DNA of 64,000 bases from a bacterium (GCA_965219955.1 OZ244799.1:1472001-1536000); one strand, 5' to 3'. Shown: positions 9,589-59,181, counted from the first letter of the stretch. The notes: generated by a model not told the origin, from the letters alone. Made by a program: numbers and translations.

Positions 9589-9601
9589 GGCATCCGCCCT
9601 C

Positions 9602-11109: not shown

Positions 11110-11112
11110 GGC

Positions 11113-34789: not shown

Positions 34790-34825
34790 CTCAGCGCTTC
34801 ACCATTTTTCCGGGCGTTTTTGAAC

Positions 34826-35611: not shown

Positions 35612-35643
35612 GAGATTTCCCTGTCGAGTAGGATAGAGCCGAT

Positions 35644-36222: not shown

Positions 36223-36407
36223 GTGAGATATAAAACTCCGCAATGCGATATGAGACGGCTCGTGATGGGTATACCATAAACGGATGTCCCAACCTTGTCT
36301 ATTCAAACTTTCTCGCCACCGCTTCTGGTTTCATCGACGAGAAATTGTGGTTATAATCACCAACAGAGCCCGCCGTATATTTTCTTGATGGCCCGAGAAT
36401 CCACCAC

Positions 36408-39361: not shown

Positions 39362-41794
<2,433 letters not shown>

Positions 41795-42952: not shown

Positions 42953-43581
42953 GTCGACTCCTCGCTCCGCGTCCAGGGCAGGCTCATGAAAGCACGCTCG
43001 CAGTCTGCGCGCAAAGATGGCTCATCCCGGGAGCACCTCGCGATGATATGCGCGCCCTGAATCTGGGAGAAATAAGAACGCGCGAATACAAGCGGGGTGA
43101 TACGCCCCGGAAGGTCTCCTTCTTTTTGGGACTGCGCCAATACGAGGGCAATTCTCTCGAAAACGCCGTCCCACACCTTTTTCAGCTTCACGCGCATCTC
43201 CTCGTCCAGGGCGCTGAGCTCGAGCGAGAGGTTCCCGATGGGGCATCCGCAGCACGGGGAATCCTGAATCGGCATGCGGGCGTAGGACTCCGCCAGACGC
43301 CGGATTTTCTCACGCCCCCTCGCCTGAATATCAAACGATGGAGAGAGGTAGTTTTGATGAAGAAGCGATTCGTAATGATCGATGACGGCGAGCCCCAGGT
43401 TCTTCTTGGAGCGGAAAAAATAATACAAACTCCCCCGGTTCACCCGGGCGGCCTGCGCGACCATGTCCAGTGAGGTGGCGTGAAAACCATTTTGATAGAC
43501 GAGCCGCGCGGCCGCATCTATGATTTTTTGTTTCGTCGCGGACGCCTTGGGGCCTTTGGGCGTCGCCGTTGCTGATTCCAT
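42949..43581 (-). CDS. TetR-family regulator (NemR/ComR-like, CCGCP motif)
   Basis: N-terminal HTH (GFHATSL..VA....V.RGSLYYFF.SK); ATGA overlap with the protease gene. Confidence 0.9.
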   Translation of the reverse strand: MESATATPKGPKASATKQKIIDAAARLVYQNGFHATSLDMVAQAARVNRGSLYYFFRSKKNLGLAVIDHYESLLHQNYLSPSFDIQARGREKIRRLAESYARMPIQDSPCCGCPIGNLSLELSALDEEMRVKLKKVWDGVFERIALVLAQSQKEGDLPGRITPLVFARSYFSQIQGAHIIARCSRDEPSLRADCERAFMSLPWTRSEEST

Positions 43582-43636
43582 TCCCTATTACTCCGATCCG
43601 TTGGAAACCGCCTGGTGAACAGCAGTCTACCGGAAA

Positions 43637-43670
43637 AGGATAATTTATTTTAGTTAGTCAGTCAACTAAA
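43637..43670 (-). promoter_or_regulatory. Sigma70 promoter with overlapping palindromic operator upstream of tetR
   Basis: Minus strand TTGACT-17 bp-TATCCT; palindrome TTTAGTT-N8-AACTAAA at 43649-43670 spans the -35 box. Confidence 0.65.
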
Positions 43671-43707
43671 TTTTGGGGCTGTTCGGGAAACTTGGTGCGC
43701 AAATCCG

Positions 43708-44646
43708 TTACGCCGTGAGTTCCCGCAAATGCGCGACGACGGAGCGCTCGAGAGCCTCGAGGTTGTATCCGCCTTCGAGCAGGCAGACAAGCCGCCCCTC
43801 GCAGAGGTTTTCGGCAAGCGCCTTCACCCAACCGGTCAGACGGGCGAACCCGGCTTCGGTGATCATCAGCCCCCCGAGCGGGTCGTCCCGGTGCGCGTCG
43901 AACCCAGCCGATACGACGATAGCCTCCGGCCCGTGCGCCTCGATGGCGGGGATGACGCTTTCCTGAAATTTATTCAGATATTCCTCCTCGGGCGTTCCCG
44001 CCGCGACGGGAATGTTGAGCGTCGCACCCTCGCCCGCTCCTTCTCCGGTCTCGCCCGCCAGCCCCGTACCCGGATAGTGGGGATGCTGGTGCAGGGAGAC
44101 GAAAAGCACGTCCGGATCGCTCCAGAAAATATGCTGGGTGCCGTTTCCGTGATGCACGTCCCAATCCACCACGGCGATTCTCCGGAGCCCGTGTTTTTCC
44201 TGCAGATACCGGACCAGGATGGAGGCGGTGGCGAACAGGCAGAAACCCATGGATTGATGGGGCAAGGCGTGATGGCCCGGCGGTCTGGCGGCGCAAAAGG
44301 CGTTATCGGCTTCTCCGGCCACGACGGCATCCGCCGCGCTCAGGGCCGCATCCACGGAGGCGAGAGCGGCCTCATAGCTACCGGGGCCCGCCAGCGTGTC
44401 GCCGCCATCGAGAACGCACCTGCCGCCGGCGCACGCCTCCCGCACGAAATCGTGGTGCGGTTCCTCATGCACCCTCAGAACCCACTCCCTGGCGTCGTGT
44501 GGCTGAATCTCCATGTGCCTGAGCGACGGGACTTGCGGGAGAATTCTCTCGGGCGTCAGGCGTCTGGCGCGCTCGACGTTCTCCACGTGCCGGCCGTTGT
44601 CGTGCATGAGCGATTCGGGCGTCCAGAAATACGCGGTCCGGCTCAA
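43708..44646 (-). CDS. Histone deacetylase-family amidohydrolase
   Basis: RPPGHHA, GFCLF, DWDVHHGNGTQ, SAGFDAH, LEGGY; TTG start overlaps the dppB-like stop. Confidence 0.93.
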   Translation of the reverse strand: MSRTAYFWTPESLMHDNGRHVENVERARRLTPERILPQVPSLRHMEIQPHDAREWVLRVHEEPHHDFVREACAGGRCVLDGGDTLAGPGSYEAALASVDAALSAADAVVAGEADNAFCAARPPGHHALPHQSMGFCLFATASILVRYLQEKHGLRRIAVVDWDVHHGNGTQHIFWSDPDVLFVSLHQHPHYPGTGLAGETGEGAGEGATLNIPVAAGTPEEEYLNKFQESVIPAIEAHGPEAIVVSAGFDAHRDDPLGGLMITEAGFARLTGWVKALAENLCEGRLVCLLEGGYNLEALERSVVAHLRELTA

Positions 44647-45560
44647 TGGAGTCTCACTCTCGGGTCAAGGACGGAATACATCATGTCAACGATGAGGTTC
44701 AAAGACACGAAAATCAGGGCAGTGATGGTCACCGAAGCCTGCACCAGCGGGAAATCCTTGGCGTAGACGGCCTGAATCAGGAGCCTGCCCACGCCCGGCC
44801 AGGAGAAAATCGTCTCGACGATCACGGCGCCGCCGAGTAAATGCCCGAATTCCAGGCCGATGATGGTGATCACCGGAATCAGGGAGTTTCTGAGCACGTG
44901 CAGGTTGACGACGACCCACTCGGAGAGTCCCTTCGCGCGAGCGGTCTTCACGTACTCATGGCGCAGCACCTCCAGCATGGAGCTTCGAACCACCCGCGCA
45001 TTTCTCGCAATCGAGTAGGTGGAAAGCGCGATGGCGGGCAGCACCAGATGCTCCCAGCCGCCTCTTCCGCTGACGGGCAGCCACCTCAGACCCACCCCGA
45101 AGACGAGGATCAGCATCAAACCGAGCCAGAAAACGGGCATGGATTGCCCCAGGAGCGCGAACAACATCCCCCCGTGATCATACGGAGAGCCGCGCTGCGT
45201 CGCGCTGATGATCCCTACCGGAAACGCCAGGATGATCGAGAGGACCAGCGCCACCAGGGCGAGTTCCAGCGTCGCCGGCAGACGCTCCATGATGAGTTCG
45301 AACGCGGGCTGGCGGTAGCGCAGGCTTTCTCCGAAATCACCCTGAACCGCCCTGCCCACGTAGAGCGTGTATTGAACGAACCAGGGCTTGTCCAGACCCA
45401 GGTCTTCTTTGAGTTTCTGAACCTCCTCGACCGTCCAGTCCTCGCCCACCATGGTGTCCGTCGGGTCGCCCGACAGGAACAAGACGGCGAACGAGATGAA
45501 GCTCACGCCGACCACGACCACGACGGCCCGAAGAAATCGTCTGAAGAGATAGGCGCCCAT
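44643..45560 (-). CDS. Peptide/nickel ABC permease (DppB-like)
   Basis: GLDKP...QY, GDFGES, RLPATLEL, TARAKGL, ETIFSWPG.G. Confidence 0.93.
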   Translation of the reverse strand: MGAYLFRRFLRAVVVVVGVSFISFAVLFLSGDPTDTMVGEDWTVEEVQKLKEDLGLDKPWFVQYTLYVGRAVQGDFGESLRYRQPAFELIMERLPATLELALVALVLSIILAFPVGIISATQRGSPYDHGGMLFALLGQSMPVFWLGLMLILVFGVGLRWLPVSGRGGWEHLVLPAIALSTYSIARNARVVRSSMLEVLRHEYVKTARAKGLSEWVVVNLHVLRNSLIPVITIIGLEFGHLLGGAVIVETIFSWPGVGRLLIQAVYAKDFPLVQASVTITALIFVSLNLIVDMMYSVLDPRVRLH

Positions 45561-45563
45561 CGT

Positions 45564-47111
45564 CTATTCTTTCGCCTCTTTCAAGCGGATCGTGGGCAGG
45601 TAGATCCTCTCGTCCGGCCTCGGCGTCCATTGCGTTCTGGCGCTCAAGCCGAAAAAATCATACTGGTTCCAGAGGAATACCCACGGGCTTTCTTCATGAA
45701 CGATGCGCTGCATCCGGTAGCTGATCCGCTTGCGCTCGGCGGAGTCGAACGTCTGGCCCAGCAACTTGTAATTTTGAATAAACTCCCGGTTTCTCCAGGC
45801 GGTGAGGTTCGCAAAAAGGTTGGGCCTCAACACGCCCAGGTCGAGTTCTTCGTTGAAGGCGGAGCTGAACCCGTGAAAATACAAGGGCGCCAGCGTCTTT
45901 TTTCTTCTTCTGGCGAGAAAAACGGACCACTCCAGGGGGATCACCTCCACGCGGACGCCCACGTCGCGGAAATAAGCCGCCAAAAATTCCGACATCTCCT
46001 TTCCTTTCAAATACCTGGAAGCGGGCACTTCAAGTTTCACCTCAAACGGCTTTCCATTCGCTTCCAATACACCGTCCCCATTCGTATCCTTCAGACCGGC
46101 CTCGGCGAGGAGGGCTTTCGCCTTTTGAGGATCGTAGGCGTACGCCTTGATATCCGGGTCGGCGTTCGGGGGGTTCACGATACTCTTCATCCGGGAGCCA
46201 TGACCCAGAAAAACGTTCCTGACGATGGCCTCGAAATCAATCGCGTGGTTCAGCGCCCGGCGAACGCGAGGGTCGCCGAGCACCCCGTGATCCGTGCGAA
46301 TCCCCAGATAAATCCTGCGTCCCCCCCGGGCGCCTTTGAGCTGGAGACCCTCTTCTCTCGCCAGAATGGTTTTCGATTGATCGGGCGAGATGTTCATGAT
46401 GACGTCGGCCCCGCCCGTCTCAAGCTCCCCGATGCGGGCCGAAGCCTCGGCCACTGGACGCCAAACCACTTTTTTTATGGCGGGCTCACCCCGCCACCAG
46501 TTCTCGTTGGCCTCCATCTCGACGTGATCGTCCTTGACCCATTTCACCAGCTTGTAGGGCCCCGAGCCCACGGGTTTTTTCAACAGTTCCTTGGGCGGGG
46601 TCGATGAATAATACCCGGGCGGTAGCATGAACGCGTTCACCATCCACACAGGCAGGGTGGCGACCGGGCGCTTCGTATGAATCTTCACGGTGTGGGAGTC
46701 CACTTTTTCCACCCTGTCCAGAAAAATCCTCCGGTAAACCGTGGTGCGGGGCTTGAGTTTCCTGTCCCGCATCCGCTCGAAGGTGTAGCGCACGGATTCC
46801 GCATCGAACGGCTCGCCGTTATGAAACTTCACACCCTTGCGCAGATGAAACGTCCAGACCTTTTTCGTTTCGTCCACCTCCCAGCGTTCGGCCAGGGCGG
46901 GCCCCAGCGTCATATCGCCGCGCCGCTCGATGAGCGGGTCGAACATGTTCATCAATATGCTCCACTCGATGGTGGCCGTGGCGAAATGGGGGTCGAGCGT
47001 ATTGGCTTCCACCGAGAGGAGAACCGTGAAGGGACCCTGTTTCGCTTCGCGGCCGCAGGCGGCGAGCGCCACGAGCAGCAGGCAAAATCCGCACAACAAG
47101 GCTCTTTTCAT
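45564..47111 (-). CDS. Peptide ABC substrate-binding lipoprotein (DppA-like)
   Basis: LAAC lipobox, LDPH, LR.GVKFHNG, GSGPYK, VRRAL.HAID. Confidence 0.93.
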   Translation of the reverse strand: MKRALLCGFCLLLVALAACGREAKQGPFTVLLSVEANTLDPHFATATIEWSILMNMFDPLIERRGDMTLGPALAERWEVDETKKVWTFHLRKGVKFHNGEPFDAESVRYTFERMRDRKLKPRTTVYRRIFLDRVEKVDSHTVKIHTKRPVATLPVWMVNAFMLPPGYYSSTPPKELLKKPVGSGPYKLVKWVKDDHVEMEANENWWRGEPAIKKVVWRPVAEASARIGELETGGADVIMNISPDQSKTILAREEGLQLKGARGGRRIYLGIRTDHGVLGDPRVRRALNHAIDFEAIVRNVFLGHGSRMKSIVNPPNADPDIKAYAYDPQKAKALLAEAGLKDTNGDGVLEANGKPFEVKLEVPASRYLKGKEMSEFLAAYFRDVGVRVEVIPLEWSVFLARRRKKTLAPLYFHGFSSAFNEELDLGVLRPNLFANLTAWRNREFIQNYKLLGQTFDSAERKRISYRMQRIVHEESPWVFLWNQYDFFGLSARTQWTPRPDERIYLPTIRLKEAKE

Positions 47112-47132
47112 GCGCGAGTTCCCTTCCGAAAC

Positions 47133-48065
47133 CTACATGTCATCGCCGAGGCGGGGGTCCATGTAGTCCCTCAGCCAGTCGCCGATGAGGTTGATGCTCA
47201 GAACCGTCGCCATGATGGCGAGACCCGGGAAAGTCGCCATCCACCACGCGCCTCTCAGATATTCACGCCCTTCGGCGAGCATGCCCCCCCAGGTGACGAC
47301 CGAAGGCGGAACGCCGAACCCCAGAAAGCTGAGCGAGGATTCGGAAATGATGTTTCCCGCTACGGCAAAGGTGGCGATGACGATCAGAGGCGAGAGGGTG
47401 TTGGGCAGTATCTGCATGAACAGTATGCGGTACAAAGGGTAGCCCAGGGCATGGGTGGCCTCCACGAATTCGCGCTCCCTTATCGAGATGACCTGTCCTC
47501 TCACCACGCGGCCGTACGCCACCCACCGGCTGATCCCCAGCACCACGATGATGTTGAACAGGCCCGGCCCGACGACCGCCATGATCGTGAGGGCCAGAAG
47601 CATAAAGGGAAACGCCAGTTGAATCTCGGAAAACCCGCTGATGAGATCGTCGATTTTTCCGCCGAAAAAGCCGGAAACAAGCCCCAGAACGATGCCGATC
47701 ACTCCTGAAATCACCACCGAACTCAAACCCACGAGAATGGAGACGCGGCCCCCGTACATGAGCCGGCTCAAAACGTCCCGGCCCAGCGCGTCTGTTCCCA
47801 GAAAATAGCGCGCGCTTCCGCCCTCCACCCAGACAGGCGGCTTCAGGCGCAGGTTGACGTCCACCAGGCTCGGGTCTTGCGGCACAATGAGAGGGGCGGA
47901 AAAAGAAACGACCACCAGCAGGATGAGAAAAACGCCCCCGAGCATCGCCGGTTTGGCGCGCATCAAGCTGCGGCGGAATTTCGCCCACCGGAGCTCCGAT
48001 TCCGGAATCATCGGGTATCCATCCGCATCAATAGCGGATTCGGACATTGTTCTATCTTCGGACAT
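47133..48065 (-). CDS. Peptide ABC permease (DppC-like)
   Basis: LGTDALGRD, ESSLSFLG.G, WGGML, W....PG, GDWLRD..DPR. Confidence 0.93.
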   Translation of the reverse strand: MSEDRTMSESAIDADGYPMIPESELRWAKFRRSLMRAKPAMLGGVFLILLVVVSFSAPLIVPQDPSLVDVNLRLKPPVWVEGGSARYFLGTDALGRDVLSRLMYGGRVSILVGLSSVVISGVIGIVLGLVSGFFGGKIDDLISGFSEIQLAFPFMLLALTIMAVVGPGLFNIIVVLGISRWVAYGRVVRGQVISIREREFVEATHALGYPLYRILFMQILPNTLSPLIVIATFAVAGNIISESSLSFLGFGVPPSVVTWGGMLAEGREYLRGAWWMATFPGLAIMATVLSINLIGDWLRDYMDPRLGDDM

Positions 48066-48284
48066 TCATCTATTCTCGCGCCTTGGTGACATATTTCGTG
48101 AGTTGAGACGCTCCGCATCCTAGCATAGCGGAACGCGCGTTGCAGAAGCCCCGGGGGTGAAATCGCCGCACCCCGGAATGTCGATTCATGTTGATATCCG
48201 CAAGGCTATCGAATTAGAATCGCCTGTTTCGATTTTGGAGCCGCCAGGGGATTCACGCTGATTCTCGAAGAAGGAAAGTTTTCC

Positions 48285-49721
48285 TTGCCTCGCCACACGA
48301 AAGATGATTTCAACGAAGTGTTGACTTCCGCCGTTCCGGCAGGCTCGACGTTCGGCTTTCAGGGCCTGCGCGCGGTCGATTCCATTACCGTGGAAAACAT
48401 CGTCCCCCTCGATTTCCTCATCGCCTGTGACTACGGGCTCGACGGTCCGGAGTGGGACAGGCGCCTGCGCTATTTCGCCGTGGAGCGCGGGCGGAACAGA
48501 CGAATCGTGTGGACGCATTCATCGCTCGTAGAGGCTTATGAAGGCGCCCTGGGCTCTCAAATCCGGGAGTTTCTCTCGCAAGGGGACGCTCCCCGGTACG
48601 TCATCCCCTACCGCTCCACGGAATTCCTCGGAAAGCTCGCCGAAGAAGCCGACGGCAGGCTCCACATTCTGGCGAACCCGGTGGAAATCAAGACGAGACT
48701 CGACGACAAGATATCCTTCCGCCGCCAGGCGATCGAAGCAGGGTTCGCCGTTCCCCCGGGCGACGTGGTGGCGCTGGGTGAACTCGGACTCAATCAACTC
48801 GAAGAATTCGGCCCCGTTATGATCATTTCGGAGCGAATCGGTTCCTCCGGCAACCAGACGCACTTCATCGACTCACCCGAGGCGCTCGCAACGAAACGGG
48901 ATGAACTCATCGAGAAACTGGGCCCCGATGCGCCGGTGATCGTGAGCGCGTTTCTAAGCGGCCCCGCCGTGGGAACGGCAGGGTTGATTTATGACGGCAA
49001 ACCCTGGATGTCCCACCCCTCGGTGATGTTCACGGGAATTCCCGGCTGCTCCATGCACCGCTTCGACTATGCCGGAAGCGATTATGCGGCGTATCGGCTG
49101 GTTTCCGGGGAGAGCCGGCGAAAAATCGAAGAATTCACCCTGAAAATCGGAGAGTGGATAGCAGAGGCGGGCTACCGGGGAATATACGGCGTCGATTTCA
49201 TCGTCCATCGGGACGAACCCTACGCCCTCGAACTCAATCCGCGCGTACTGGGGACAACACAACTGATGACCGAACTCGAGGAAATACACGGCGACGCACC
49301 CACCACCACCTACTGGCATCTGGCCGAATTCCTGAAGCCGGGCGCCGCTCTCGACGCGCGTCAGGACTTGCTCGCCGAACTCAGCCGGCCGGATTTATCC
49401 GGTTTCCAGCTCCTGATTCGAAACACGAGTCCTTCGAGAGTCCGAATCGGCTCCTCGCTGGAACCCGGCATCTACACTATCCAGAATGGAAAGCCCGAAT
49501 TCATCCGGCGGGGGTATCGCCTGAGCGACGTTCAAGACCAGGATGAAGTGCTGGTGACTTGCTCTCCCCCGGCGAAAGGCACCATAGTAGAGCCGAGGGG
49601 AGCGTTCTGTAAGCTCGAGGGCGTTTCATCCATCTATGAAGGGGGAGAAAAGCAGATATCTCCGCACGCCCGGGAAATGATTGACAGTTTCACGCGCCGC
49701 CTCGCGCTTTCTCCCGCTTAG
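48285..49721 (+). CDS. ATP-grasp fold ligase of unknown substrate
   Basis: LDDK..FR...EAG..VPP, GSSG..T.FI loop, GIYGVDFI, ELNPR. Confidence 0.8.
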   Translation: MPRHTKDDFNEVLTSAVPAGSTFGFQGLRAVDSITVENIVPLDFLIACDYGLDGPEWDRRLRYFAVERGRNRRIVWTHSSLVEAYEGALGSQIREFLSQGDAPRYVIPYRSTEFLGKLAEEADGRLHILANPVEIKTRLDDKISFRRQAIEAGFAVPPGDVVALGELGLNQLEEFGPVMIISERIGSSGNQTHFIDSPEALATKRDELIEKLGPDAPVIVSAFLSGPAVGTAGLIYDGKPWMSHPSVMFTGIPGCSMHRFDYAGSDYAAYRLVSGESRRKIEEFTLKIGEWIAEAGYRGIYGVDFIVHRDEPYALELNPRVLGTTQLMTELEEIHGDAPTTTYWHLAEFLKPGAALDARQDLLAELSRPDLSGFQLLIRNTSPSRVRIGSSLEPGIYTIQNGKPEFIRRGYRLSDVQDQDEVLVTCSPPAKGTIVEPRGAFCKLEGVSSIYEGGEKQISPHAREMIDSFTRRLALSPA

Positions 49722-49734
49722 GACATCGTGGAAA

Positions 49735-50904
49735 TTGAAAATAGATTCTTTCGCATCCACCGCCCGGGGTCTGTTCCTCTCTCCCGGGAGTCCGTATGCC
49801 TTTCAGGCGGATTTCACGCCCGACCCGCAGGCCGTTCCTTCCAACGGCATCTTCCTGGGTGAGGTCGTTGACGTTCCCGAAAACGCGCCCATTGATCGCC
49901 TGGAAACGCTCGAAGCTCTCCAGGGAACGCAAGACGCCTGGAAGACGAGCGAAATGAAATTGCGCGAAAAAATGAACTTGGTCGTGACAATTGGCGGGCG
50001 CTATGCGAATCGCAGCGTTTCGGGCCGTGCGCCGGACTCGCCCGCAGAGCCTGGCGTCATACTCGACCTGCTGAACGTCGGCGGCGTCTGCGGGGTCCGC
50101 ACGAACCCCGATACGCCGTGCGTGAAAATAGAGGTGAAAGGGGGCGTCGCGCTGCGAGGCGAACCCGCCACGCTTTCTCATCTCCCCGTCATTCCCGATA
50201 CCCGGTGCCCCGTGGATGAAGAGGGAATTCCCTGCGCTCCCATTATCCTGGTCACCGGCTCCGAGATGGACGTGGGCAAAACGACCTGCGCGTCTTCGCT
50301 CGCCTCCGCCCTTCACTCCTCGGGCATCCACGTCTCGTACGTGAAACTCACGGGAACGGGACGCATGCGGGATCTCATGCAGGTAAACTACGGAAGACCG
50401 CTCGGGTTTTTCGATTCAGCGAGACTCGGGTGGGATTTCGTCGATGCGGGTCTCGCATCCACATGCGGCGCCTCCCCGCGCAGGGTCAGGCGATGCGCCC
50501 AGAACCTGCTTCGCCACGGCTGCGCGAAGGCGGAGATCGTGATTGCGGAATTGGCGGATTCCCCGTCTTCCGACGCCAGCCTCCACGTGGCGAGCGACCC
50601 CTGGGTCAAAGACTGGCTCGCGCGCAGAGGTCTGATAATCTGCGCATGTGATACGCTGGAATCAACGCTCATCGTTCACTGGATACGGAGCCACCTGGAA
50701 GTGGAGGAGGAAAACATGCTCATTTCCGGAAAGCTCGCGAACGAAGCGCATGCGCGCGAGGAGGCGTACCGCATGACCGGCATCCGCGCCCTGAGTTGCA
50801 CAGCTCCGAATCCCTCCTCCCTCGCGGGCGAGAGGGCTGTCGGCGGAGCCATCGCGGACTGGGTGGCAAAACACTTTATGCGCCAGCGCAAGTCGGTCTT
50901 CTAA
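49735..50904 (+). CDS. DUF1611-like P-loop protein
   Basis: ILVTGSEMDVGKTT, KLTGTG..RD, DFVDAG..ST, AELAD; TTG start inferred at 49735. Confidence 0.7.
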   Translation: MKIDSFASTARGLFLSPGSPYAFQADFTPDPQAVPSNGIFLGEVVDVPENAPIDRLETLEALQGTQDAWKTSEMKLREKMNLVVTIGGRYANRSVSGRAPDSPAEPGVILDLLNVGGVCGVRTNPDTPCVKIEVKGGVALRGEPATLSHLPVIPDTRCPVDEEGIPCAPIILVTGSEMDVGKTTCASSLASALHSSGIHVSYVKLTGTGRMRDLMQVNYGRPLGFFDSARLGWDFVDAGLASTCGASPRRVRRCAQNLLRHGCAKAEIVIAELADSPSSDASLHVASDPWVKDWLARRGLIICACDTLESTLIVHWIRSHLEVEEENMLISGKLANEAHAREEAYRMTGIRALSCTAPNPSSLAGERAVGGAIADWVAKHFMRQRKSVF

Positions 50905-50916
50905 AAGAGAAAACCC

Positions 50917-52533
50917 TTGGCCTCATACAAGAGAGCAAATCATCCCCTCATCGCGCGAGAACCTTCTCTGTATCACCTCACGCCGGATGCGAGCGGCGGC
51001 GTCTGGGATCTGAACCGGTTGAGCCGGGAATTCGACTCGCCCACCGGCGACCTGAATGAAACCCTGATCGAGAGCCTCAACCAATGGGCGTCGCGCGAAC
51101 CTCGATTTGCGGACTTCCGCATCGTAAAAGACGCATCACCCACTCGACTTCCGGGAGAGATACTTTTGCTGGACGGCTCCCCGAGCCGGCTCCCCCTCAC
51201 CATGGAGACGGCGCGGGTGATGCGGGCGCACCTGAATCAACTGGGGTTGTCCATCCCCGTCAGGGTCCTGAACCGGCGCGAAGAACTTCTGGCGCGCGCC
51301 GCCAAGGCGCCGAGAGAACTGCTCGTCATCAGCCAGACCGCCCAAAGAAGCCTCTACGACGCAACCCTCGCAAAGGTTCTCGAATCGCGGGGAATCGTCG
51401 TGGTGCCCGGGCCTCTCACCGCTCCCGGCGGGCCGCTGTCCAACAAGAAAACCACGTACGAACTCCTGAACGGAAACGGCGCTGACGCGAAAAACCTGCA
51501 TGTGGACGGTCCCGGGCGTCACCTGACGGCCGGCTATGAAGTGGTGGAATCAAACGGAGGGCGACCTGCGGATACCGCCACAGCCATACTGGACAAGGCT
51601 TCCGCCTTGTCGAAGAAGTGGGGCGTCACGACTTTCTTCGTCAAGCCGCAGGAAGGCGGCGGCGGACGCGGATGTTTTCGGCTGGACGTCTACCCCAACG
51701 GGTTCGGGCTGCCGGATTTGAGCAGGCTTGGCGTCGCAACACGCCATGCGACTCCTCAGCCCTTATCTATCGACGCGGAAAACCACGACCACCTTCGGGC
51801 GATGGATTGGCTCGTTCATCGCTTCCAGGCCAGCCCGGCGACCTCGAATGCCTATATCAAGACCCGAATGGTGGGAGACGGCGCTCCCCCGGCCGTCCTG
51901 GGTCAGATGCTCAGAAACTGCGCGCCCAGACTCGAATCCGAACTGCGCGAATCCGCCCGATCACGCGAGGAATCGCTGCGCCTCCTGTCGAGCGCCATCG
52001 AGAACTACGAGCAGGTGTTCGACGCGCGCTACCTGCCGCTGATATGCGACTGGATAGATTTCGGCCTGTTCAGCGTTCGCGTTCACCTGAGGCTCAGCCG
52101 CGAGGGAATGGTCGTGGAAACGCTCTACGCCAGGCTCTTTCCGGTGGAATTCTCGGATGATTCGATCGGCGTCGTCGGCGTGGACAGCATCACGAACCGC
52201 ACGGAGGGGGGCATGGAACTGAACCGCTATACGCCTCTGGTCCCGCCCCTGGTCGCGTATGCGGGAGGGGCGGAGAGATTGTGCGAGAAGCTTCGCGGCG
52301 CCTTCGATGCGTTCGCGCGCTTTTTGACTCTCGTCGACCCCTCCGAGCGCGGCAGGATTCCGGTTCGGGCCGAATTCGACCTCTCGCCCCTCAACGGACT
52401 GATCGCCGAGGGCAACGCCGATCCCGTCCGCGCCCAGTGCGCGAACAGCCGCTGGGTGAGATTCTCCGAAAACAGCGCGCAGTGGGCGGAGGACGCCCTG
52501 TCGCTCTACTCATGGAAATCTCAAAAACTCTAA
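50917..52533 (+). CDS. Divergent ATP-grasp-like hypothetical protein
   Basis: SNKKTTYELL, FFVKPQEGGGGRGCF loop, late EFDL...IAEGN segment. Confidence 0.6.
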   Translation: MASYKRANHPLIAREPSLYHLTPDASGGVWDLNRLSREFDSPTGDLNETLIESLNQWASREPRFADFRIVKDASPTRLPGEILLLDGSPSRLPLTMETARVMRAHLNQLGLSIPVRVLNRREELLARAAKAPRELLVISQTAQRSLYDATLAKVLESRGIVVVPGPLTAPGGPLSNKKTTYELLNGNGADAKNLHVDGPGRHLTAGYEVVESNGGRPADTATAILDKASALSKKWGVTTFFVKPQEGGGGRGCFRLDVYPNGFGLPDLSRLGVATRHATPQPLSIDAENHDHLRAMDWLVHRFQASPATSNAYIKTRMVGDGAPPAVLGQMLRNCAPRLESELRESARSREESLRLLSSAIENYEQVFDARYLPLICDWIDFGLFSVRVHLRLSREGMVVETLYARLFPVEFSDDSIGVVGVDSITNRTEGGMELNRYTPLVPPLVAYAGGAERLCEKLRGAFDAFARFLTLVDPSERGRIPVRAEFDLSPLNGLIAEGNADPVRAQCANSRWVRFSENSAQWAEDALSLYSWKSQKL

Positions 52534-52622
52534 GTTAGAATCAACCGGCCCGCGTTCGTTTCTATTCGAGGAATCTCACGGGGCGGGAATCGCGCGAAAG
52601 ATCCTCATCCAGCGCTCTAGAA

Positions 52623-55600
52623 GTGAGCGAAATGGCGAAACTCCTCAAAAAAGTGTTCAGCATCCAGGAAGAGGAGTTGCTCGTCTTCTCGGTGTTCTTT
52701 TTCTTCTACTTCCTGATCGGGGTTCAGTTCTCCATCGGGCTCACCGTATCCGAAGCGTTGTTCCTCTCGGAAGTCGGCCCGGGGTTTCTCCCCTACATGT
52801 ACATATTCAACGCCCTGATGATCATCTTCATCAGCACGTTCTACTCCTCGCTGACCGAAAAACTCTCCATCCCGGCGATGTTCAAGACCGTCCTGATATT
52901 TTTCATCGTGCTCGTTTTCGGCATCAAGCTGCTCATCTTCGCGGATTTCCGCGCCTACGCGATGCCGATCGCATTCCCGCTCCTCCACACGCTGTTCGTG
53001 ATGTTCACGAACATGCTGCCGAACAATTTCCGCGCCCTCTACGGCCAGTATCTCGACGTCCTGCAGTCGAAGCGGCTGGTTCCGATCATCCTCACGGGCG
53101 GACGCTACGGCGGCATTGTCGGCGGCCTCGCCATTCCGCTGCTCATCCCCGTTCTCGGGAGCGTCTCGAATCTGCTCTACGTGTGGATTGGGGCCATCGT
53201 CGTCAGCATCGGGGTGGTGCAATACGCCGAATGGCGGCTCAGAGATCACCTCATCGACGATGCGCGTCCCAAAAAGCGCAAGGCGAAGAAGACGGCCTCA
53301 AAAGGCGGCAACATCGCATTGATGAAGACGAACAGGTACGTCTGCGCGTTCGCCCTGTTCAGCTTCATCGTGGTGATCCTCAGGAGTTTTCAGGATTTCC
53401 AATACAGCCTCGTCTTTCGCGAGGTCTTTCCCGACCGCGCGCAACTCGCCTCGTTCCTCGGGTATTTCACCGCCATCGGAAGCGCCTTCTCCCTGCTCGT
53501 CCAGACGTTCATCACCCCGCGCATCATCAAGCGTCTCGGCCTGGGCACGGCGAACCTCCTCTACCCGCTCACGACCATCATCGGCCTCGCCGGCATGGCG
53601 ATCTCGCCCGGCTTCTACTCCGCCGTCTTCCTGCGCTTCAACAACAAGAACCTCCAGGAATCGATTCGAAACGCCATCAACGCCCTGCTCTACAACGCCG
53701 TCTCCCCCTCGATCCGCGCGAGGGTCGGCGCGTTCGTCGCGGGCCAGGTGGTCGCCGTGGCCAGCATCGTCAGCGGCGTCGCCCTGCTCATCATCAAGCC
53801 CACCGGTCTCGCCCTCTTCCCGCTCAGCGCAGGCCAACTGGCGCTCATCTCCTTGTTCATCGCCTTCGCCTATCTGGCCGTCGGCTTCTTCGTGCGCCAT
53901 GAATACGGCGCGGCCCTGCGCCGGATGCTCGAGGAGAGGAACTTAGGGTTATTCCGCTACGCCCAGGAGGGGTTCGGCCCGGTTGACGACGAGAACATGG
54001 CGATACTCAGAAAAAACATCCGCGAGGGGGATGATGACCTTTGCGTCTTCACAGCCCGGATGATGGCGGAAAGCGGCAGAAGCGAGACCTTCTCTATTAT
54101 TCTCGGGGAAATCCCGCGGCGAAAGGGATATGCCGCAGCCGAGTTGCTCAAAATTCTCGCCAGGGCTCCAGGAGCCGAAGAAGGCGAGAAAATGCGGCCC
54201 TTGCTCGAGGAATACCTCACCTGCGGAGAACCCGTCCTGCAGTGCGCCGCCATGGACGCGGCGGAAACGGTCGGGCTCACCGATGAGACGGCGGATCTGG
54301 TCCATGAAAACCTGGAGAGCCGCTCGCCCGAGGTCAGGGCGCGCGCCGTCGAACTGCTGGTGCGCTCCGACGATCTGTTCTGGCTCGCCAACGGACTCCA
54401 AACACTGCACCGGATGCTCAACGAAGAAGACGCGGCGGCGAGGGTCTGCGCCCTGCGGTGCATGGGGGAACTTCAGAACCCGCGCTTCATCAGACGCTTG
54501 ATCCCCTATCTCTACCAGGAGGAGGAAAAAGTCCGCGAAGCCGCTTTGGAGGCGATAGAAGTATTGGCCCTGAATCAGGGGGTCGACGAGGAGAAGATGG
54601 AGGAAGTCATCCGGGTGACCACTTCGGATGAGAGTGCGGCCATCAGGCGCAGAGGCGTCAGGCAACTGGGCAACAAGGGCTCGAGGGAGAATTTCGAGCG
54701 CGTCCTGACCGCTCTTTCGGACGTCGATTCGCTGGTGAGGAGGCAGGCCGTCGATTCGCTCAAGAACATGAAGCGAAAAGGAACCCTCTCTCTCGAGGGC
54801 TCGGGTCTGATTTCATTCGCCGCCCCGCTTTTGTTCAGAAGCGCTAAAAACGGCTCCCGCGAAATGAGCGCGCAGGAAATCGTGGACTCCCTCTCCGGGT
54901 TCGCCGTGGAGCACCTGAAGGAAGTCTACGGCGTCATCAATCACCTCCACGTCATCGAAAGCCGGGAAAACGCATCCGCCTTCACGATGTTGAGAAAAGC
55001 GCTCGAAGACGTCGTCGCGGAAAGGCAACTGGTTCTGCTGGAATTATTGGGGGTGATAGGAGACGAGAAAACAGTGGACACCGTGTCGGAATCCCTCGCC
55101 CGTGGCGGATCGTCGTCGAGGGCAATCGCCATCGAGACGCTCTCGAACTTCTCCTCGTCCGGCAATACGAGAGTCCTCATTCTCGCCCTGGAGCCTCTGT
55201 TGCTGGGCAGGTCGACGGCCGACAAGGTTTCCGAGGGCAGGAAACTTTGGGAGATCCCCGATGAATCGATTGGCGAGGTGCTCTCGACATACATGAATTC
55301 CGAAAACGCGTGGCTCCGGGCCATCGCTCTCGACGCGGCGGGCAAGCACCTCGAAAGCGAAGCGGGTGGAGCTGCCGCCGAATGGCGCGAGCAGTTCAGG
55401 GCGCGGGCAACCGAGGACGACCCGTACGTCCGCGAGGCGGCGGTTGCCGCATTGAAAATTATCGGGAAAGATGAAGACGATGTTGAGGCGTTCTTGAGAA
55501 CCATGGAGAATGACGAGAACCAAATGGTGCGCATTCAGGTGCGCCGCGAGTTGCTCCGTTACGAGGACGGTGGGGAAAACTTATCCAGGCAGGAGAAAAT

Positions 55601-56030
55601 CATGCTCTCGACCATCGAAAAAGCCCTGTTTCTGAAAGGCGTCAACATGTTCGAGACGATGAGCGCGGATGAACTGAAAATACTGAGCAACATCTCCAGG
55701 GAAATCCAGATAGAGTCGGGCAAGGTTCTTTTCGAGCAAGGAGACTCTTGCGACTATCTCTACGTCATCGTGGACGGGGAAATCGAAATCATCCTCAATC
55801 AGGAGGACGCAGAGCCCAGGATTCTCGCCACGCTCGGCCCGCCGACCTCGTTCGGCGAAATCGCGCTCTTTGGCGACGAGGGCAGGAGCGCAGGCGCGCG
55901 AGCGAGCAAGGACACCTCTTTGCTCGGCATCGAGAAAGAACCCCTTCTCGAACTGATTCACGAGCACCCCACCATTTCCATCGCCATCATCGGCCAACTG
56001 GCCGGCATCATCAGAAGCCAGAACGAATAG
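52623..56030 (+). CDS. MFS/Npt-like membrane domain + HEAT repeats + cNMP-binding domain fusion
   Basis: About 12 TM N-terminal region (LFL..VG...LPY.YI, QSKRL.P), VR..A HEAT repeats, LFEQGD..D.LYVI..G and FGEIAL....RSA. Confidence 0.85.
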   Translation: MSEMAKLLKKVFSIQEEELLVFSVFFFFYFLIGVQFSIGLTVSEALFLSEVGPGFLPYMYIFNALMIIFISTFYSSLTEKLSIPAMFKTVLIFFIVLVFGIKLLIFADFRAYAMPIAFPLLHTLFVMFTNMLPNNFRALYGQYLDVLQSKRLVPIILTGGRYGGIVGGLAIPLLIPVLGSVSNLLYVWIGAIVVSIGVVQYAEWRLRDHLIDDARPKKRKAKKTASKGGNIALMKTNRYVCAFALFSFIVVILRSFQDFQYSLVFREVFPDRAQLASFLGYFTAIGSAFSLLVQTFITPRIIKRLGLGTANLLYPLTTIIGLAGMAISPGFYSAVFLRFNNKNLQESIRNAINALLYNAVSPSIRARVGAFVAGQVVAVASIVSGVALLIIKPTGLALFPLSAGQLALISLFIAFAYLAVGFFVRHEYGAALRRMLEERNLGLFRYAQEGFGPVDDENMAILRKNIREGDDDLCVFTARMMAESGRSETFSIILGEIPRRKGYAAAELLKILARAPGAEEGEKMRPLLEEYLTCGEPVLQCAAMDAAETVGLTDETADLVHENLESRSPEVRARAVELLVRSDDLFWLANGLQTLHRMLNEEDAAARVCALRCMGELQNPRFIRRLIPYLYQEEEKVREAALEAIEVLALNQGVDEEKMEEVIRVTTSDESAAIRRRGVRQLGNKGSRENFERVLTALSDVDSLVRRQAVDSLKNMKRKGTLSLEGSGLISFAAPLLFRSAKNGSREMSAQEIVDSLSGFAVEHLKEVYGVINHLHVIESRENASAFTMLRKALEDVVAERQLVLLELLGVIGDEKTVDTVSESLARGGSSSRAIAIETLSNFSSSGNTRVLILALEPLLLGRSTADKVSEGRKLWEIPDESIGEVLSTYMNSENAWLRAIALDAAGKHLESEAGGAAAEWREQFRARATEDDPYVREAAVAALKIIGKDEDDVEAFLRTMENDENQMVRIQVRRELLRYEDGGENLSRQEKIMLSTIEKALFLKGVNMFETMSADELKILSNISREIQIESGKVLFEQGDSCDYLYVIVDGEIEIILNQEDAEPRILATLGPPTSFGEIALFGDEGRSAGARASKDTSLLGIEKEPLLELIHEHPTISIAIIGQLAGIIRSQNE

Positions 56031-56156
56031 CCTGGGCAGGAGGTGGAAGCGGGGCATGGGCGCCCGCCTTCATCTTCGTGAACCACCTTGTGTTTTCTGC
56101 ATATTCCCGCCGCAAGCAGGCTGAATTGCGCTACGTTAAAACTACCCGCTCTGCGG

Positions 56157-56185
56157 TTGACGCCCGTCCTGCCCATACCTATAAT
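56157..56185 (+). promoter_or_regulatory. Near-consensus sigma70 promoter for the multiheme cytochrome
   Basis: TTGACG-17 bp-TATAAT. Confidence 0.75.
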
Positions 56186-56253
56186 CAGCCGGATTTTAGC
56201 CAAAGAACCCGGATTTTCCGCTCAGAACGCCGGTGGGGGAGCGTTTTTTCAAG

Positions 56254-59181
56254 ATGCAAGGTCGAGACTTCAAACCTCCGGAAGAAAAAACCAGTCCTAT
56301 ATCGTTTTTCATCCTAGGGCTCATCATGGTCGCGGTGACGTTCTGGACCGTCTGGGACGAAGCGTTCACGCGCAGACCCTGGAAGCAATACCAGAAACAG
56401 TTCAACGCTTATGAAAGAGCGCAGGTAGAGAAAGAGCTCGCCAGCCTCAAGAAAACCACCGGCTCGAAGGTTTCCGAACTCGACAAGAAGATCGCCGCGC
56501 TGCAACAAAAACTCGCGGGCGACGAAGAGTTGAAAAGCCTCAAGGAAGAACTCACGAAGGGCGAACTCGACGCTTTCGAGAAGGTGCAGGAGCTTGGCTT
56601 CAGAAAAGCGCTCTTCGATCAGTCCTACTTCTATCTCCAGGAAGCCATCCGGCAGGGGCACGACAAAAAAACCGAGCAAACCGAAGTCGACGAAGCCAAG
56701 GCCCTGCTCGATGAGATAACGCCCGTCGCGGCGAAGGCTGAAGCCGCGAGAGACGCGATAAAAGCGAAGATTGCGGCCAAGGAAAAAGAGCTGAAAACGC
56801 TCCAGGCGACGCGACGGAAAGTGGCGGGCGACATTTCCTTCCAGGAGCGGCGGCTGCAAGGCATCGCCGCCCGCCCCTATGAGATCAACCAGCTCGTCCT
56901 GCGCGAATACGAACGGAACAACTTCAACGAACCGGTGATGAAGGTGGAACGGTGCCAGACCTGTCACTTGGGCATCAACCGGGCGGGCTTCGAGAATGCG
57001 CCCCAGCCGTTCCGCACGCATCCCAACAGACGCCTTTATCTCACGACGCACGAATTCAACAAGGTCGGCTGCACGCTTTGCCACGGAGGACAGGGCTCGG
57101 CCGTCACCAGCCTCAATACGGCCCACGGCCATGTACAGTTCTGGGAAGACCCCCTTCTCCACGGCAGCGAAACACAAACCAAGTGCAGAAGCTGCCACAC
57201 CGAGATTTTCAACATCCCGGAAGCGCCCAAGATCTCGCGCGGAATCTCCCTCACCAGGGAGCTGGGCTGCAACGGCTGCCACACCCTCCCGGGCACGGAA
57301 GGCCTGCGCAAGGTGGGGCCGGACCTCTCGAGAATCCAGGAGAAAGTGGCGCCCGCCTGGCTCGTCTCCTGGGTCAAGAAGCCGAAAGACTACAACCCGC
57401 GCACCCGCATGCCGTATTTCAGCTTCACCGATCAGGAAGCGCTGGACATCGCCACGTACGTCTGGCGGCAGGGCCCGCGCAAGGTGGAATCCGCCAAGTT
57501 CCCGAGTCTCGATGACGCAGCGCTAATCAAAAAAGGAAAATCCATCTTTGAAGAAGTCGGGTGCCTGGGTTGTCACATCCGAAACGATAAAGACCTGGAA
57601 CCCGGTCCCCCGCTCGAGGGCGTGAACGGCAGGCCCATCGTGTACAGGAACCGCGATTTCGCACCGGCGCTCCAGAACATCGGCGCCAAGGTCCAGCCCG
57701 ACTGGCTGTTCCGCTGGCTCAAGAACCCCAGGTCGTACTGGCACGACACCAAGATGCCGAGCCTCCGTCTCACGGATGAGGAAGCGAGCGCGGTCACCAC
57801 TTACCTCGTCAGCCTCACGCCCCCCGCGAAACGGCCGAAACCCAGAAAACTGGGCGATGAGGCCTCGTTCGAGCGCGGCAAGAAACTCGTGGCGACGCGC
57901 GGGTGTTTCGGCTGCCACGTCATCCCCGGCACCGAGAAGCTCTCCAAAATCGGGCCGGACCTGACCCGCTTCGCGGCCAAAAAGCCGTTCGAGCTCTCAT
58001 TCGGCAACGTGGTCGACATGCCCCACACCTGGGAGTCGTGGACCTTCGGCAAGCTGAAAAATCCGCAACTCTACCAGACCGAGCGCGAGACGCTGCTCAT
58101 GCCGAACTTCGAATTCTCGGATGCGGAGGTCTCCGCCATACGCACCCTGCTGCGCTCCATGACGCCGCACGGCGCGCCGCACAGCGTCCACCAGGTGCTC
58201 GACACGCGCGCCAGGCGGATCGAAAACGGCCGCCGGATGATCGAGAAATACAACTGCAACGGCTGCCACGTCATCGAGAACTGGGGGGGCGACCTGCTCA
58301 GGCGCTATGAAGACAAGACGAACGGTCCGCCCCTGCTGAACGGCGAGGGCCGAAAGGTGCAGCCCGAGTGGTTCTTCGGCTTCCTGCGCAACGTCGTTAC
58401 GCTGAGACCCTGGCTCAAGGTGCGGATGCCCAGCTTCGAGATGCCCGAGAAAGACGCCGCGGCGCTCGTGGATTACTTCGCCGCGCTGGACTCGAAGCTC
58501 AACCCCTACATCCATTTCGACGCCAAGAGCGTGAGTGCGGAAAACCTCCAGGCCGGCAAAAAGCTCTTTGGCATGGCCGAATGCCTCGCCTGTCACGGCG
58601 AATGGCCGCCCCCGCCGGGCCAGGAACCCCCTACGGCGCCGAACCTGCTGTTCGCCAAGGAACGCCTGCGTCCCGACTGGGTCGTCGACTGGCTCATCTA
58701 CCCGGGCAGAATCCAGCCGGGAACCAAGATGCCCAACTTCTTCGAGGGGGCGGGTTCTCAGGCCCAAATCGTCAAAGGCGTCCGGGGCGAGAAGGAAGAC
58801 GACCTGTTCATCTACGAACTCGAAGCCACGGAAGAAGTCGAGTTGCCCGAAGAGCAATTCGCCACCCTTCGCGTCGGCGGCGCCACCCATCTCGTGAAGG
58901 TGGCGGAAATAGACGAGAAGAAGATGACCATCTCCTCGCCTGCCGATCTCGGAAAAACCATCGGCAAGGCGACGATAGAGAGCCACGGCGAGCCCATCGA
59001 CGAGGAACTCCTGGGCGGTGACGCGTACCGGCAAATCCGCGCGATGCGCGACTACCTGATGATCGAGACGAATTTCCTCAAACCCGCCGAGTCCAGCGCG
59101 AAGAACGACGCGCCTCAAACCGGGAAGCCCGAAAAAGAGGCCGAAGCCGAACAGGCCGATAGCGACGCATCGCCGAGCTAG
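56254..59181 (+). CDS. Membrane-anchored octaheme cytochrome c with coiled-coil stalk
   Basis: Eight CxxCH motifs: CQTCH, CTLCH, CRSCH, CNGCH, CLGCH, CFGCH, CNGCH, CLACH; N-terminal TM helix. Confidence 0.92.
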   Translation: MQGRDFKPPEEKTSPISFFILGLIMVAVTFWTVWDEAFTRRPWKQYQKQFNAYERAQVEKELASLKKTTGSKVSELDKKIAALQQKLAGDEELKSLKEELTKGELDAFEKVQELGFRKALFDQSYFYLQEAIRQGHDKKTEQTEVDEAKALLDEITPVAAKAEAARDAIKAKIAAKEKELKTLQATRRKVAGDISFQERRLQGIAARPYEINQLVLREYERNNFNEPVMKVERCQTCHLGINRAGFENAPQPFRTHPNRRLYLTTHEFNKVGCTLCHGGQGSAVTSLNTAHGHVQFWEDPLLHGSETQTKCRSCHTEIFNIPEAPKISRGISLTRELGCNGCHTLPGTEGLRKVGPDLSRIQEKVAPAWLVSWVKKPKDYNPRTRMPYFSFTDQEALDIATYVWRQGPRKVESAKFPSLDDAALIKKGKSIFEEVGCLGCHIRNDKDLEPGPPLEGVNGRPIVYRNRDFAPALQNIGAKVQPDWLFRWLKNPRSYWHDTKMPSLRLTDEEASAVTTYLVSLTPPAKRPKPRKLGDEASFERGKKLVATRGCFGCHVIPGTEKLSKIGPDLTRFAAKKPFELSFGNVVDMPHTWESWTFGKLKNPQLYQTERETLLMPNFEFSDAEVSAIRTLLRSMTPHGAPHSVHQVLDTRARRIENGRRMIEKYNCNGCHVIENWGGDLLRRYEDKTNGPPLLNGEGRKVQPEWFFGFLRNVVTLRPWLKVRMPSFEMPEKDAAALVDYFAALDSKLNPYIHFDAKSVSAENLQAGKKLFGMAECLACHGEWPPPPGQEPPTAPNLLFAKERLRPDWVVDWLIYPGRIQPGTKMPNFFEGAGSQAQIVKGVRGEKEDDLFIYELEATEEVELPEEQFATLRVGGATHLVKVAEIDEKKMTISSPADLGKTIGKATIESHGEPIDEELLGGDAYRQIRAMRDYLMIETNFLKPAESSAKNDAPQTGKPEKEAEAEQADSDASPS

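Follow-up and report, generated by a model that had tools for sequence, protein, structure and literature searches.

In a 64,000-nucleotide stretch of bacterial DNA (GCA_965219955.1 OZ244799.1:1472001-1536000; hereafter the window, with positions counted from its first letter), two divergent operons constitute an accessory cassette of about 11.4 kb (44643-56030) that occurs in Nitrospinota and Tectomicrobia. One operon encodes two permeases and a solute-binding lipoprotein (SBP) of an ATP-binding cassette (ABC) importer, and the other encodes an ATP-grasp ligase (AG1), a two-domain P-loop protein (PL), an orphan ATP-grasp ligase (AG2) and a membrane protein (MHC) with HEAT and cyclic nucleotide (cNMP)-binding domains. 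The permease C-SBP-permease B and AG1-PL-AG2-MHC genes form a single unit that is gained and lost together and is dispensable. The system is real, conserved and accessory. Its general kind is known, namely that of a small metabolite built by ligases and transported, but its set of enzymes is undescribed and includes an orphan ligase family. Our tentative reading, plausible but short of probable, is that the cassette makes, exports and recaptures a small peptide-like metabolite held together by amide links (the make-export-recapture reading). An initial annotation of the same DNA had not recognised the gene combination as a described pathway; three ATP-dependent, ligase-type enzymes do stand in one tight operon, and no described pathway was found for them. 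New are the boundaries of the cassette, the co-loss of importer and ligases, and the demotion of a neighbouring HDAC-family gene to the backbone around the cassette. The features concerned, with lengths in amino acids (aa) and the basis of each assignment, are the following.

43708-44646, minus strand: HDAC, an HDAC-family zinc amidohydrolase (312 aa), from PF00850
44643-45560, minus strand: permease B, OppB-like, from BPD_transp_1 and BPD_transp_1_N
45564-47111, minus strand: SBP, a family-5 solute-binding lipoprotein (515 aa), from SBP_bac_5
47133-48065, minus strand: permease C, OppC-like, first gene of the divergent operon, from BPD_transp_1 and OppC_N
48066-48284: divergent intergenic region of 219 bp between permease C and AG1, from the sequence
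48285-49721, plus strand: AG1, an ATP-grasp ligase (478 aa, TTG start), from ATP-grasp_3
49735-50904, plus strand: PL, a two-domain P-loop protein (389 aa, TTG start), from the predicted fold
50917-52533, plus strand: AG2, an orphan ATP-grasp ligase (538 aa, TTG start), from the predicted fold
52623-56030, plus strand: MHC, a membrane-HEAT-cNMP protein (1135 aa, GTG start), from HEAT_2 and cNMP_binding

The gene neighbourhood was surveyed with one genome per species, which yielded 77 loci with AG2 relatives, 31 of them with the architecture of the window (PL-type) and 46 others; per-gene counts refer to evaluable loci only. The arrangement is more than chance: it is seen again in the 31 related loci, a further 46 loci have the AG1-AG2 pair, and homologs co-occur widely in other genomes. 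AG1 lies directly upstream of PL or AG2 in all 74 evaluable loci (29/29 PL-type, 45/45 distant), with order and strand unchanged. Among the PL-type loci, MHC comes after AG2 in every evaluable case (29/29), neither permease B nor SBP is ever missing (27/27 each), and permease C is lacking only from locus L022 (27/28), which has a methyltransferase-like gene in its place; for the flanking genes the counts are 24/25 (HDAC), 19/23 (TetR) and 17/23 (HtrA). Across 51 species genomes of the phylum, AG2 was found in 35, representing 8 of 15 genera, and an SBP ortholog (E<=1e-100) in 36, the presence or absence of the two agreeing in 50 of the 51 genomes; G050 holds SBP as a fragment only. The proposed link between the synthesis operon, the cNMP-linked transporter and the SBP-dependent importer is thus upheld by their joint inheritance and loss.

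Three genomes set the boundaries of the unit, with importer, ligase operon and MHC inside and HDAC outside. In genome G021 (locus L081, G021:C1:2736000-2755900, about 9300-12900), which belongs to the same genus and is 97% complete, HtrA, TetR and HDAC are intact, permease B is cut to residues 254-305, permease C to 1-57 and AG1 to 1-61 plus 406-478, and nothing remains of the SBP gene, AG2 or MHC; PL persists as an intact 389-aa open reading frame (ORF), and the cytochrome gene follows directly. In the distant locus L069 of genome G008 (38% identity for AG2, 47% for SBP), the ABC genes, AG1-PL-AG2 and MHC stand together, and HtrA, TetR, HDAC and the cytochrome gene are not there. Genome G040 has no cassette, and its TetR-HDAC genes directly adjoin the cytochrome gene, back to back. 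In a FastTree phylogeny of 74 AG2 sequences, which omits L040 (in-frame stop or X) and L048, L071 and L073 (less than 85% of AG2 covered), a single branch with support 99 separates all 31 PL-type rows, of which 30 are loci and one is the window, from the other sequences; a single origin of PL-type AG2 is allowed by this topology rather than proven, because long branches meet at that branch. As an observation in its own right, a ZnuA-ZnuC-ZnuB zinc uptake operon and a LysR-type gene adjoin the Opp-like operon at L069 1059-3683, in the place that HDAC has elsewhere.

HDAC is a backbone gene around the cassette insertion and not an obligatory part of it. At E<=1e-60 it was detected in 43 of the 51 phylum genomes, including 10 of the 16 that have no AG2, and it is absent from G008 and G009, two of the 35 genomes with AG2. 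The protein itself is a well-preserved member of its family (PF00850, 300 bits): its nearest solved structures are HDAC6 domains, 5ji5, bacterial HDAH/APAH-like enzymes and the 'lysine deacylase' 5zmp, and the motifs PPGHHA, DWDVHHGNG, GFDAH and EGGY are all kept, which we take to supply the His-His pair, the Asp/His/Asp zinc ligands and the catalytic Tyr. At the junction with the importer operon, the TTG start of HDAC and the TGA stop of permease B overlap as TTGA, in agreement with the coupling noted previously, and the gene is probably co-transcribed with the importer operon here. Because HDAC is not a dependable part of the cassette, the earlier suggestion that it deacylates a re-imported product is weakened. 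The cytochrome gene likewise belongs to the backbone (23 of 24 evaluable PL-type loci); it encodes a multihaem cytochrome c of 982 aa with FixO-like and cbb3-type modules, lies 3' of the cassette at 56233-59181 (plus strand), and is preceded by a strong promoter-like site (11/12 matches) at 56157-56185.

The ligase operon is compact. The spacings of 12-13 and about 90 nucleotides (nt) reported before for these co-oriented genes read as 13 nt (AG1/PL), 12 nt (PL/AG2) and 89 nt (AG2/MHC), and the divergent region, previously given as roughly 220 bp, measures 219 bp. A sigma-70-like site (TTGATA-18-TAGAAT, 10/12 matches) lies upstream of AG1 at 48191-48220 on the plus strand. An Rfam search of 43000-57000 placed no family near its cut-off, so that no riboswitch or other known RNA element was recognised, and the divergent region gave no match at E<=1. 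TTG is the start codon of AG1, PL, AG2 and HDAC (48285, 49735, 50917 and 44646, respectively), and in 22 of the 29 full-length loci the PL start nearest the alignment is TTG as well.

AG1 exceeds the gathering cut-off of Pfam ATP-grasp_3 (PF02655; 28.7 bits against 23.2) and stays far below the equivalog cut-off of NCBIfam PRK06524 'biotin carboxylase' (NF005096; 67.4 bits against 684). A profile of 26 homologs searched against the PDB retrieved carbamoyl-phosphate synthetase (CPS; 1e-9), the biotin carboxylase domain of pyruvate carboxylase, PurT and BesA. In the 26 sequences S187, G189, T192, D304 and N318-P319-R320 are invariant and E316 is kept in at least 90%, giving the E-x-N-x-R catalytic motif. 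Judged by its sequence, AG1 is an ATP-grasp enzyme of the CPS / biotin-carboxylase / PurT / L-amino-acid-ligase type. The two ligases had been called 'twin' ATP-grasp enzymes, which does not hold: a profile-profile comparison by hhalign gave a probability of 0.2%, so paralogy of AG1 and AG2 was rejected, and they represent different ATP-grasp types. A non-orthologous glutathione pathway was also considered for the ligases and set aside, as a glutathione-like role is unnecessary in a genome that already has two GCS2-type ligase genes and a GSH-S_ATP match.

AG2 matches no Pfam and no NCBIfam family at E<=0.01, and its family profile retrieved only 43 matches (E<=0.001) among 1.84 billion representative proteins, with no other ATP-grasp family among them. 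Its AlphaFold2 (AF2) model (pLDDT 84.7, pTM 0.87) shows a three-domain ATP-grasp fold over residues 80-535, with a 78-residue N-terminal helical extension and a helical insertion. Structural comparison with VIA-align ranked ArgX highest (Z 19.5; root-mean-square deviation 3.4 over 275 aligned residues), followed by DcsG (19.1), LysX (18.8), Ddl (17.1), RimK (16.9), GshB (15.4), TTLL/TTL (12.4-12.8) and RizA (11.0), and Foldseek returned 184 PDB matches at E<=0.001, Ddl first at 2.4e-6. Across 25 sequences, down to 33% identity, K243-P244, G247-G250, G252, D488 and E498-G499-N500 are invariant; by the Ddl/GshB pattern, the glycine loop presumably binds ATP and the D488/E498/N500 triad Mg. AG2 is thus a sequence-orphan ATP-grasp ligase with a predicted LysX/ArgX/RimK/Ddl-like fold, and the ATP-grasp character formerly suspected for the ORF at 50917 is borne out by the predicted structure.

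The third enzyme, PL, belongs to a family of 62 proteins that is almost exclusively confined to Nitrospinota and Tectomicrobia. Its AF2 model (pLDDT 84.0) has an N-terminal all-beta domain (about residues 1-160) and a C-terminal P-loop domain (about 165-389). By VIA-align, the P-loop domain superposes on the DUF1611 proteins 2g0t (Z 14.1) and 2obn (13.5), CTP synthase (13.3), BioD (12.8) and DgcN (7xrj, 12.8), values that amount to a tie; Foldseek returned CTP synthase and BioD at E of about 2e-6, and a profile search against the PDB returned BioD at 5e-6 over the P-loop stretch only. Family models were not reached: DUF1611 (PF07755, cut-off 25 bits) matched 44 residues at 16.7 bits, with 21.3 bits for the L069 ortholog and at most 24.6 bits for the nearest outside relatives, and BioD TIGR00347 gave 23.1 bits over 40 residues against an equivalog cut-off of 83.3. 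Invariant residues comprise G175, G181-K182-T183-T184, K204, T206-G207-T208-G209-R210, D234, D237 and E272; the Walker A lysine-threonine is intact in the GxxxxVGKT form typical of BioD and DUF1611, and K204 resembles K37 of BioD. The predicted P-loop domain is therefore of the BioD / CTP-synthase / DUF1611 type, tied among the three. The initial annotation had called PL DUF1611-like and derived N-acylation from DgcN, an assignment that is not established by the sub-threshold Pfam score and the tied fold; DgcN itself is a D-glutamate N-acetyltransferase by the title of its PDB entry (7xrj). As differences from these families, PL falls below the cut-offs for DUF1611 and BioD, has an all-beta N-terminal domain in its model and carries no glutaminase domain.

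MHC combines a membrane domain (about residues 1-450) with HEAT repeats (HEAT_2, 92 bits) and a cNMP_binding domain (PF00027, 71 bits against a cut-off of 27.5), within which FGEIALFGDEGRSAGA is, on our reading, the phosphate-binding cassette. The membrane domain had been described as an MFS domain, a label that is better replaced: MFS_1 reaches only 17.9 bits against a cut-off of 33.4, and PF03219 (TLC) is present in relatives of MHC (24-44% identity), which are annotated as Npt1/Npt2 family nucleotide transporters. PF03219 does not match MHC itself, whose membrane part, as its relatives indicate, is a putative divergent TLC/Npt1-Npt2-type transporter domain. The TLC-HEAT(-cNMP) architecture recurs in dozens of proteins of Bacteroidota, KSB1 and other groups (22-29% identity to MHC). 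These Npt1/Npt2 (TLC, PF03219) proteins with HEAT, with or without cNMP-binding domains, share the architecture of MHC, whereas MHC is too divergent for PF03219 and only its branch is tied to AG1-PL-AG2. We know of no substrate test for the HEAT-fused Npt1/Npt2 forms. An acidic tail of MHC as the target of the ligases was considered and ruled out, since the C-terminus is neither conserved nor consistently acidic, the last residue being E, G, A, K, N, D or S.

SBP scores 298 bits with SBP_bac_5 and starts with MKRALLCGFCLLLVALAAC, which we read as a lipoprotein signal; among NCBIfam models it matches Opp4A (191 bits), NikA (185), Opp5A_nikA (164), GsiB (155), CntA (143) and DppA (132), all far under their cut-offs. 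For permease B the best model is Opp2B, 'nickel ABC transporter permease', whose cut-off of 350 bits is missed by only 8 (342), ahead of NikB (304), Opp1B (297), GsiC (277) and DppB (266), and permease C is closest to Opp4C (295), DppC (257) and Opp2C (nickel, 248), each below its cut-off. In NCBIfam, no equivalog cut-off was reached by any part of the importer, and the best models are those for nickel, oligopeptides, glutathione and opines.

Taken as a metabolite cassette, the genes would work in sequence, with synthesis taking place in the cytoplasm. AG1 and AG2 would each activate a carboxylate with ATP to an acyl-phosphate and join it to an amine, so that two bonds and a tripeptide-like scaffold could result. 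PL might add a third, lineage-specific step, such as amidation or ring closure through a phosphorylated intermediate, or acyl transfer. MHC would release the product, gated by its cytoplasmic HEAT and cNMP-binding domains, and the SBP lipoprotein with the two Nik/Opp-type permeases, energised by ATPases encoded elsewhere, would take up the product again or its loaded form. Where present, HDAC may act on the imported compound, although it would not be required. This reading is favoured by the tight operon, the enzyme folds and motifs, the adjacency of AG1 and AG2, the conservation of the genes, the phyletic agreement and the deletion variants, and also by the fact that other lineages pair AG1-AG2 with a hydrolase (MATCAP, 29/35) and a transporter (CstA, 24/46). 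A precedent for such chemistry is rhizocticin, for which two sequential ATP-grasp ligases (RhiM/RhiC = RizA/RizB) build a tripeptide without ribosome or non-ribosomal peptide synthetase (NRPS) (PMC13579937).

Several observations weigh against the make-export-recapture reading. The substrates, the nature of the product, the order of steps, the direction of transport including export, and control by cNMP are what we infer from the gene content. The closest solved relatives of AG2, LysX and ArgX, act on a protein C-terminus and not on free amino acids, and TLC/Npt-family proteins are known as nucleotide importers, not as metabolite exporters. The importer operon contains no ABC ATPase gene next to SBP and the two permeases; the host genome has eight OppD/F-type ATPase genes, two of them solitary (G000:C1, at about 2.327 Mb and 4.136 Mb), and at least six Opp-type permease operons, that of the window included, without an adjoining ATPase, so that several importers may draw on the same OppD/F ATPases. 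In L022, AG1 of an AG1-PL-AG2-MHC set has no ABC operon next to it. In G021, PL is intact despite the loss of AG1, AG2 and MHC, which may point to a separate function of PL or to a recent loss. Finally, the synteny of close relatives is partly inheritance, and independent evidence comes only from L069, from the loss events and from the order-level genomes G008 and G009.

Beyond the PL-type loci, the AG1-AG2 pair is found in 46 other loci from Omnitrophota, Elusimicrobiota, Thermodesulfobacteriota, KSB1, Auribacterota and bins labelled Planctomycetia, none of which contains PL, MHC, the Opp-type ABC genes or HDAC. Directly upstream of AG1, a MATCAP/DUF1704-family peptidase (PF08014, 147-161 bits) is encoded in 29 of 35 evaluable distant loci, often in an overlapping frame, and CstA lies 3' of AG2 in 24 of the 46; beyond the peptidase-AG1-AG2 triad, neighbours vary by phylum. 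This module, itself uncharacterised, resembles the cassette in its orthologous AG1 (24-33% identity) and AG2 (30-38%), always adjacent and usually with a hydrolase and a transporter attached, but has a metallo-carboxypeptidase in place of PL, MHC, the Opp/Nik-type ABC genes and HDAC. No MATCAP peptidase occurs in the 31 PL-type loci, and no homolog of MATCAP (tblastn, E<=1e-3), CstA, the SPL-like or the SagB-like protein described below was found in the host genome; a Pfam search of that genome with PF08014 gave no match either, but its control matched nowhere. A full-text literature search found nothing on bacterial MATCAP/DUF1704 combined with ATP-grasp. In several Omnitrophota loci (L028, L036, L047, L051 and others), genes for a radical-SAM protein of about 470 aa from the spore photoproduct lyase (SPL) family and for a stand-alone SagB-type dehydrogenase (TIGR03605, 130 bits) lie some 5 kb ahead of AG2, preceding MATCAP-AG1-AG2-CstA on the same strand, which suggests an operon of peptide-maturation-like character. 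In L060, a locus labelled Deltaproteobacteria, an RF-1-domain (ArfB-like) ORF of 146 aa is located at 2199-2639 between the MATCAP-like gene and AG1.

The peptidase association bears on another view of the ligases, in which AG2, aided by AG1, would extend a carrier or target protein or peptide by amino acids at its C-terminus, in the manner of LysX/ArgX (acting on LysW), RimK (S6) and TTL (tubulin); the MATCAP-like carboxypeptidase would then be the eraser in other phyla, lost in Nitrospinota where PL was gained. We regard such tail modification as unlikely. It would fit the best structural matches of AG2 (ArgX 19.5, LysX 18.8, RimK 16.9, TTLL/TTL 12.4-12.8) and the position of the MATCAP-family gene directly before AG1. 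Against it, within 7 kb of AG2, none of the 77 loci has a conserved small ORF (25-100 aa), the recurring ones being translated tRNA genes, and a precursor or carrier peptide gene was rejected on these grounds; the MHC C-terminus offers no conserved or consistently acidic tail, and the host genome has no MATCAP homolog by tblastn at E<=1e-3. Tail modification would also leave the co-inheritance with an SBP-dependent importer unexplained. That co-inheritance is what a further explanation would reduce to a single ancestral insertion, with the importer an ordinary peptide or nickel ABC transporter that merely neighbours an unrelated operon. The many paralogous Opp-type operons of the genome (16 permease-B and 11 SBP matches by tblastn) would allow this, as would L022, whose AG1-PL-AG2-MHC genes have no adjoining ABC genes, and the placement of all PL-type AG2 on one side of a single branch, by which the counts are not independent. 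Mere adjacency is nevertheless very unlikely, given that the link is kept in L069/G008 although HtrA, TetR, HDAC and the cytochrome gene are gone, that G021 carries separate deletions in both operons, and that AG2 and SBP agree in 50 of 51 genomes.

A compound that stays inside the cell, such as a compatible solute or storage compound (for instance a dipeptide amide resembling N-acetylglutaminylglutamine amide, NAGGN), would give the same genes other roles, with the ABC transporter scavenging, MHC serving as a release valve and HDAC catabolising. The marine, sponge- and coral-associated hosts, the three ATP-dependent amide-forming enzymes, among which a CTP-synthase/BioD-like enzyme could amidate a carboxylate, and the accessory nature of the cassette (35/51 genomes) are compatible with this idea. 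Yet AG1-AG2 also occurs, according to record titles, in groundwater and sediment Omnitrophota, Elusimicrobiota and Tectomicrobia, an acetyltransferase is absent, HDAC is decoupled from the cassette, and nothing connects these genes with osmotic regulation, which leaves an intracellular solute distinctly unlikely. Within the make-export-recapture reading, the product could be a secreted and recaptured chelator (metallophore) or signal of a new chemical class, built by ATP-grasp and BioD-like enzymes rather than by NRPS, NRPS-independent siderophore (NIS) or opine chemistry; it would leave the cell through a TLC-type transporter gated by cyclic nucleotides and return by way of an SBP-dependent importer of nickel/opine type, in Nitrospinota associated with sponges and corals. 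We consider this narrower proposal rather improbable as it stands; it is hinted at by the match of permease B to the nickel model (342/350) and of SBP to the NikA and CntA models, and by the ZnuABC genes beside the L069 importer and a copper P-type ATPase in the window.

Several known systems resemble the cassette in part. Rhizocticin biosynthesis likewise uses two ATP-grasp ligases acting in turn (RhiM/RhiC, or RizA/RizB), and RizA matches the AG2 fold at Z 11.0; no kinship at sequence level is apparent, the AG2 fold is nearer to LysX/RimK/Ddl, the cassette has no phosphonate genes, and it adds a third P-loop enzyme and dedicated transporters. LysX/ArgX-LysW and RimK match AG2 best in structure and cover its whole ATP-grasp core, but at 10-15% identity, and AG2 differs in its N-terminal extension and helical insertion; no LysW-like small gene was found nearby, and the locus holds none of LysZ, LysY, LysJ or LysK. 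Staphylopine (Cnt) loci follow the same logic, joining three genes for biosynthesis to an Opp/Nik-family importer that depends on an SBP and to a membrane protein of the MFS clan, whereas their enzymes are unrelated, the cassette operon lacks ABC ATPases and there is no indication of metal regulation. For the Cnt enzymes, a nicotianamine-synthase-like gene (CntL, PF03059) had no match in the 94%-complete host genome, its control matching in 1 of 14 genomes, and an opine dehydrogenase (CntM, PF10100) had none either, though its control matched nowhere and the result is uninformative. DUF1611 proteins (DgcN 7xrj; TM0796 2g0t), BioD and CTP synthase resemble PL in the superposition of the P-loop domain (Z 12.8-14.1) and in the shared Walker A type.

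The host is a sponge- and coral-associated relative of marine nitrite-oxidising bacteria (Nitrospinota). Its genome is a single contig of 4.28 Mb (94% complete), in which AG1, PL, AG2 and MHC are each present in one copy, and near-identical DNA was found in sponge, coral and marine metagenomes from six studies. In one coral metatranscriptome library, short contigs with 90-97% identity map to permease C, PL, AG2 and MHC; the library may contain DNA, and uncovered stretches carry no meaning, so these contigs give only a hint that the cassette is transcribed. Elsewhere in the window, a copper-type P1B ATPase (HMA and E1-E2 ATPase domains) is encoded at 39362-41794 on the minus strand, upstream of HtrA-TetR; it is the sole other metal-related gene near the cassette, the remaining neighbours in the window being unrelated to metals. 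Several ORFs of 190-441 aa at 33464-35740 (minus strand) and 30860-32209 have no Pfam family at E<=1e-4, and one of this set adjoins a DUF3090 gene (35644-36306).

Peptide-like metabolites made by ATP-grasp enzymes independently of the ribosome are known, but worked-out pathways are few. AG2 represents a ligase family that is unnamed in sequence databases and that, in at least six groups of phylum rank, invariably has a second ligase as its partner. Two architectures are seen for the AG1-AG2 pair, one joined to a MATCAP-like peptidase and the other to a BioD-like enzyme and transporters. In Nitrospinota, the natural deletion variants mark the synthesis and uptake genes as one dispensable unit, which is the signature of a secreted and recaptured compound such as a metallophore, a signal or a shared nutrient. 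For the widespread TLC-HEAT-cNMP transporters, the cassette would also provide the first function that can be put to the test. Life in sponges and corals might depend in part on such a compound, as might the metal or nitrogen economy of nitrite oxidisers.

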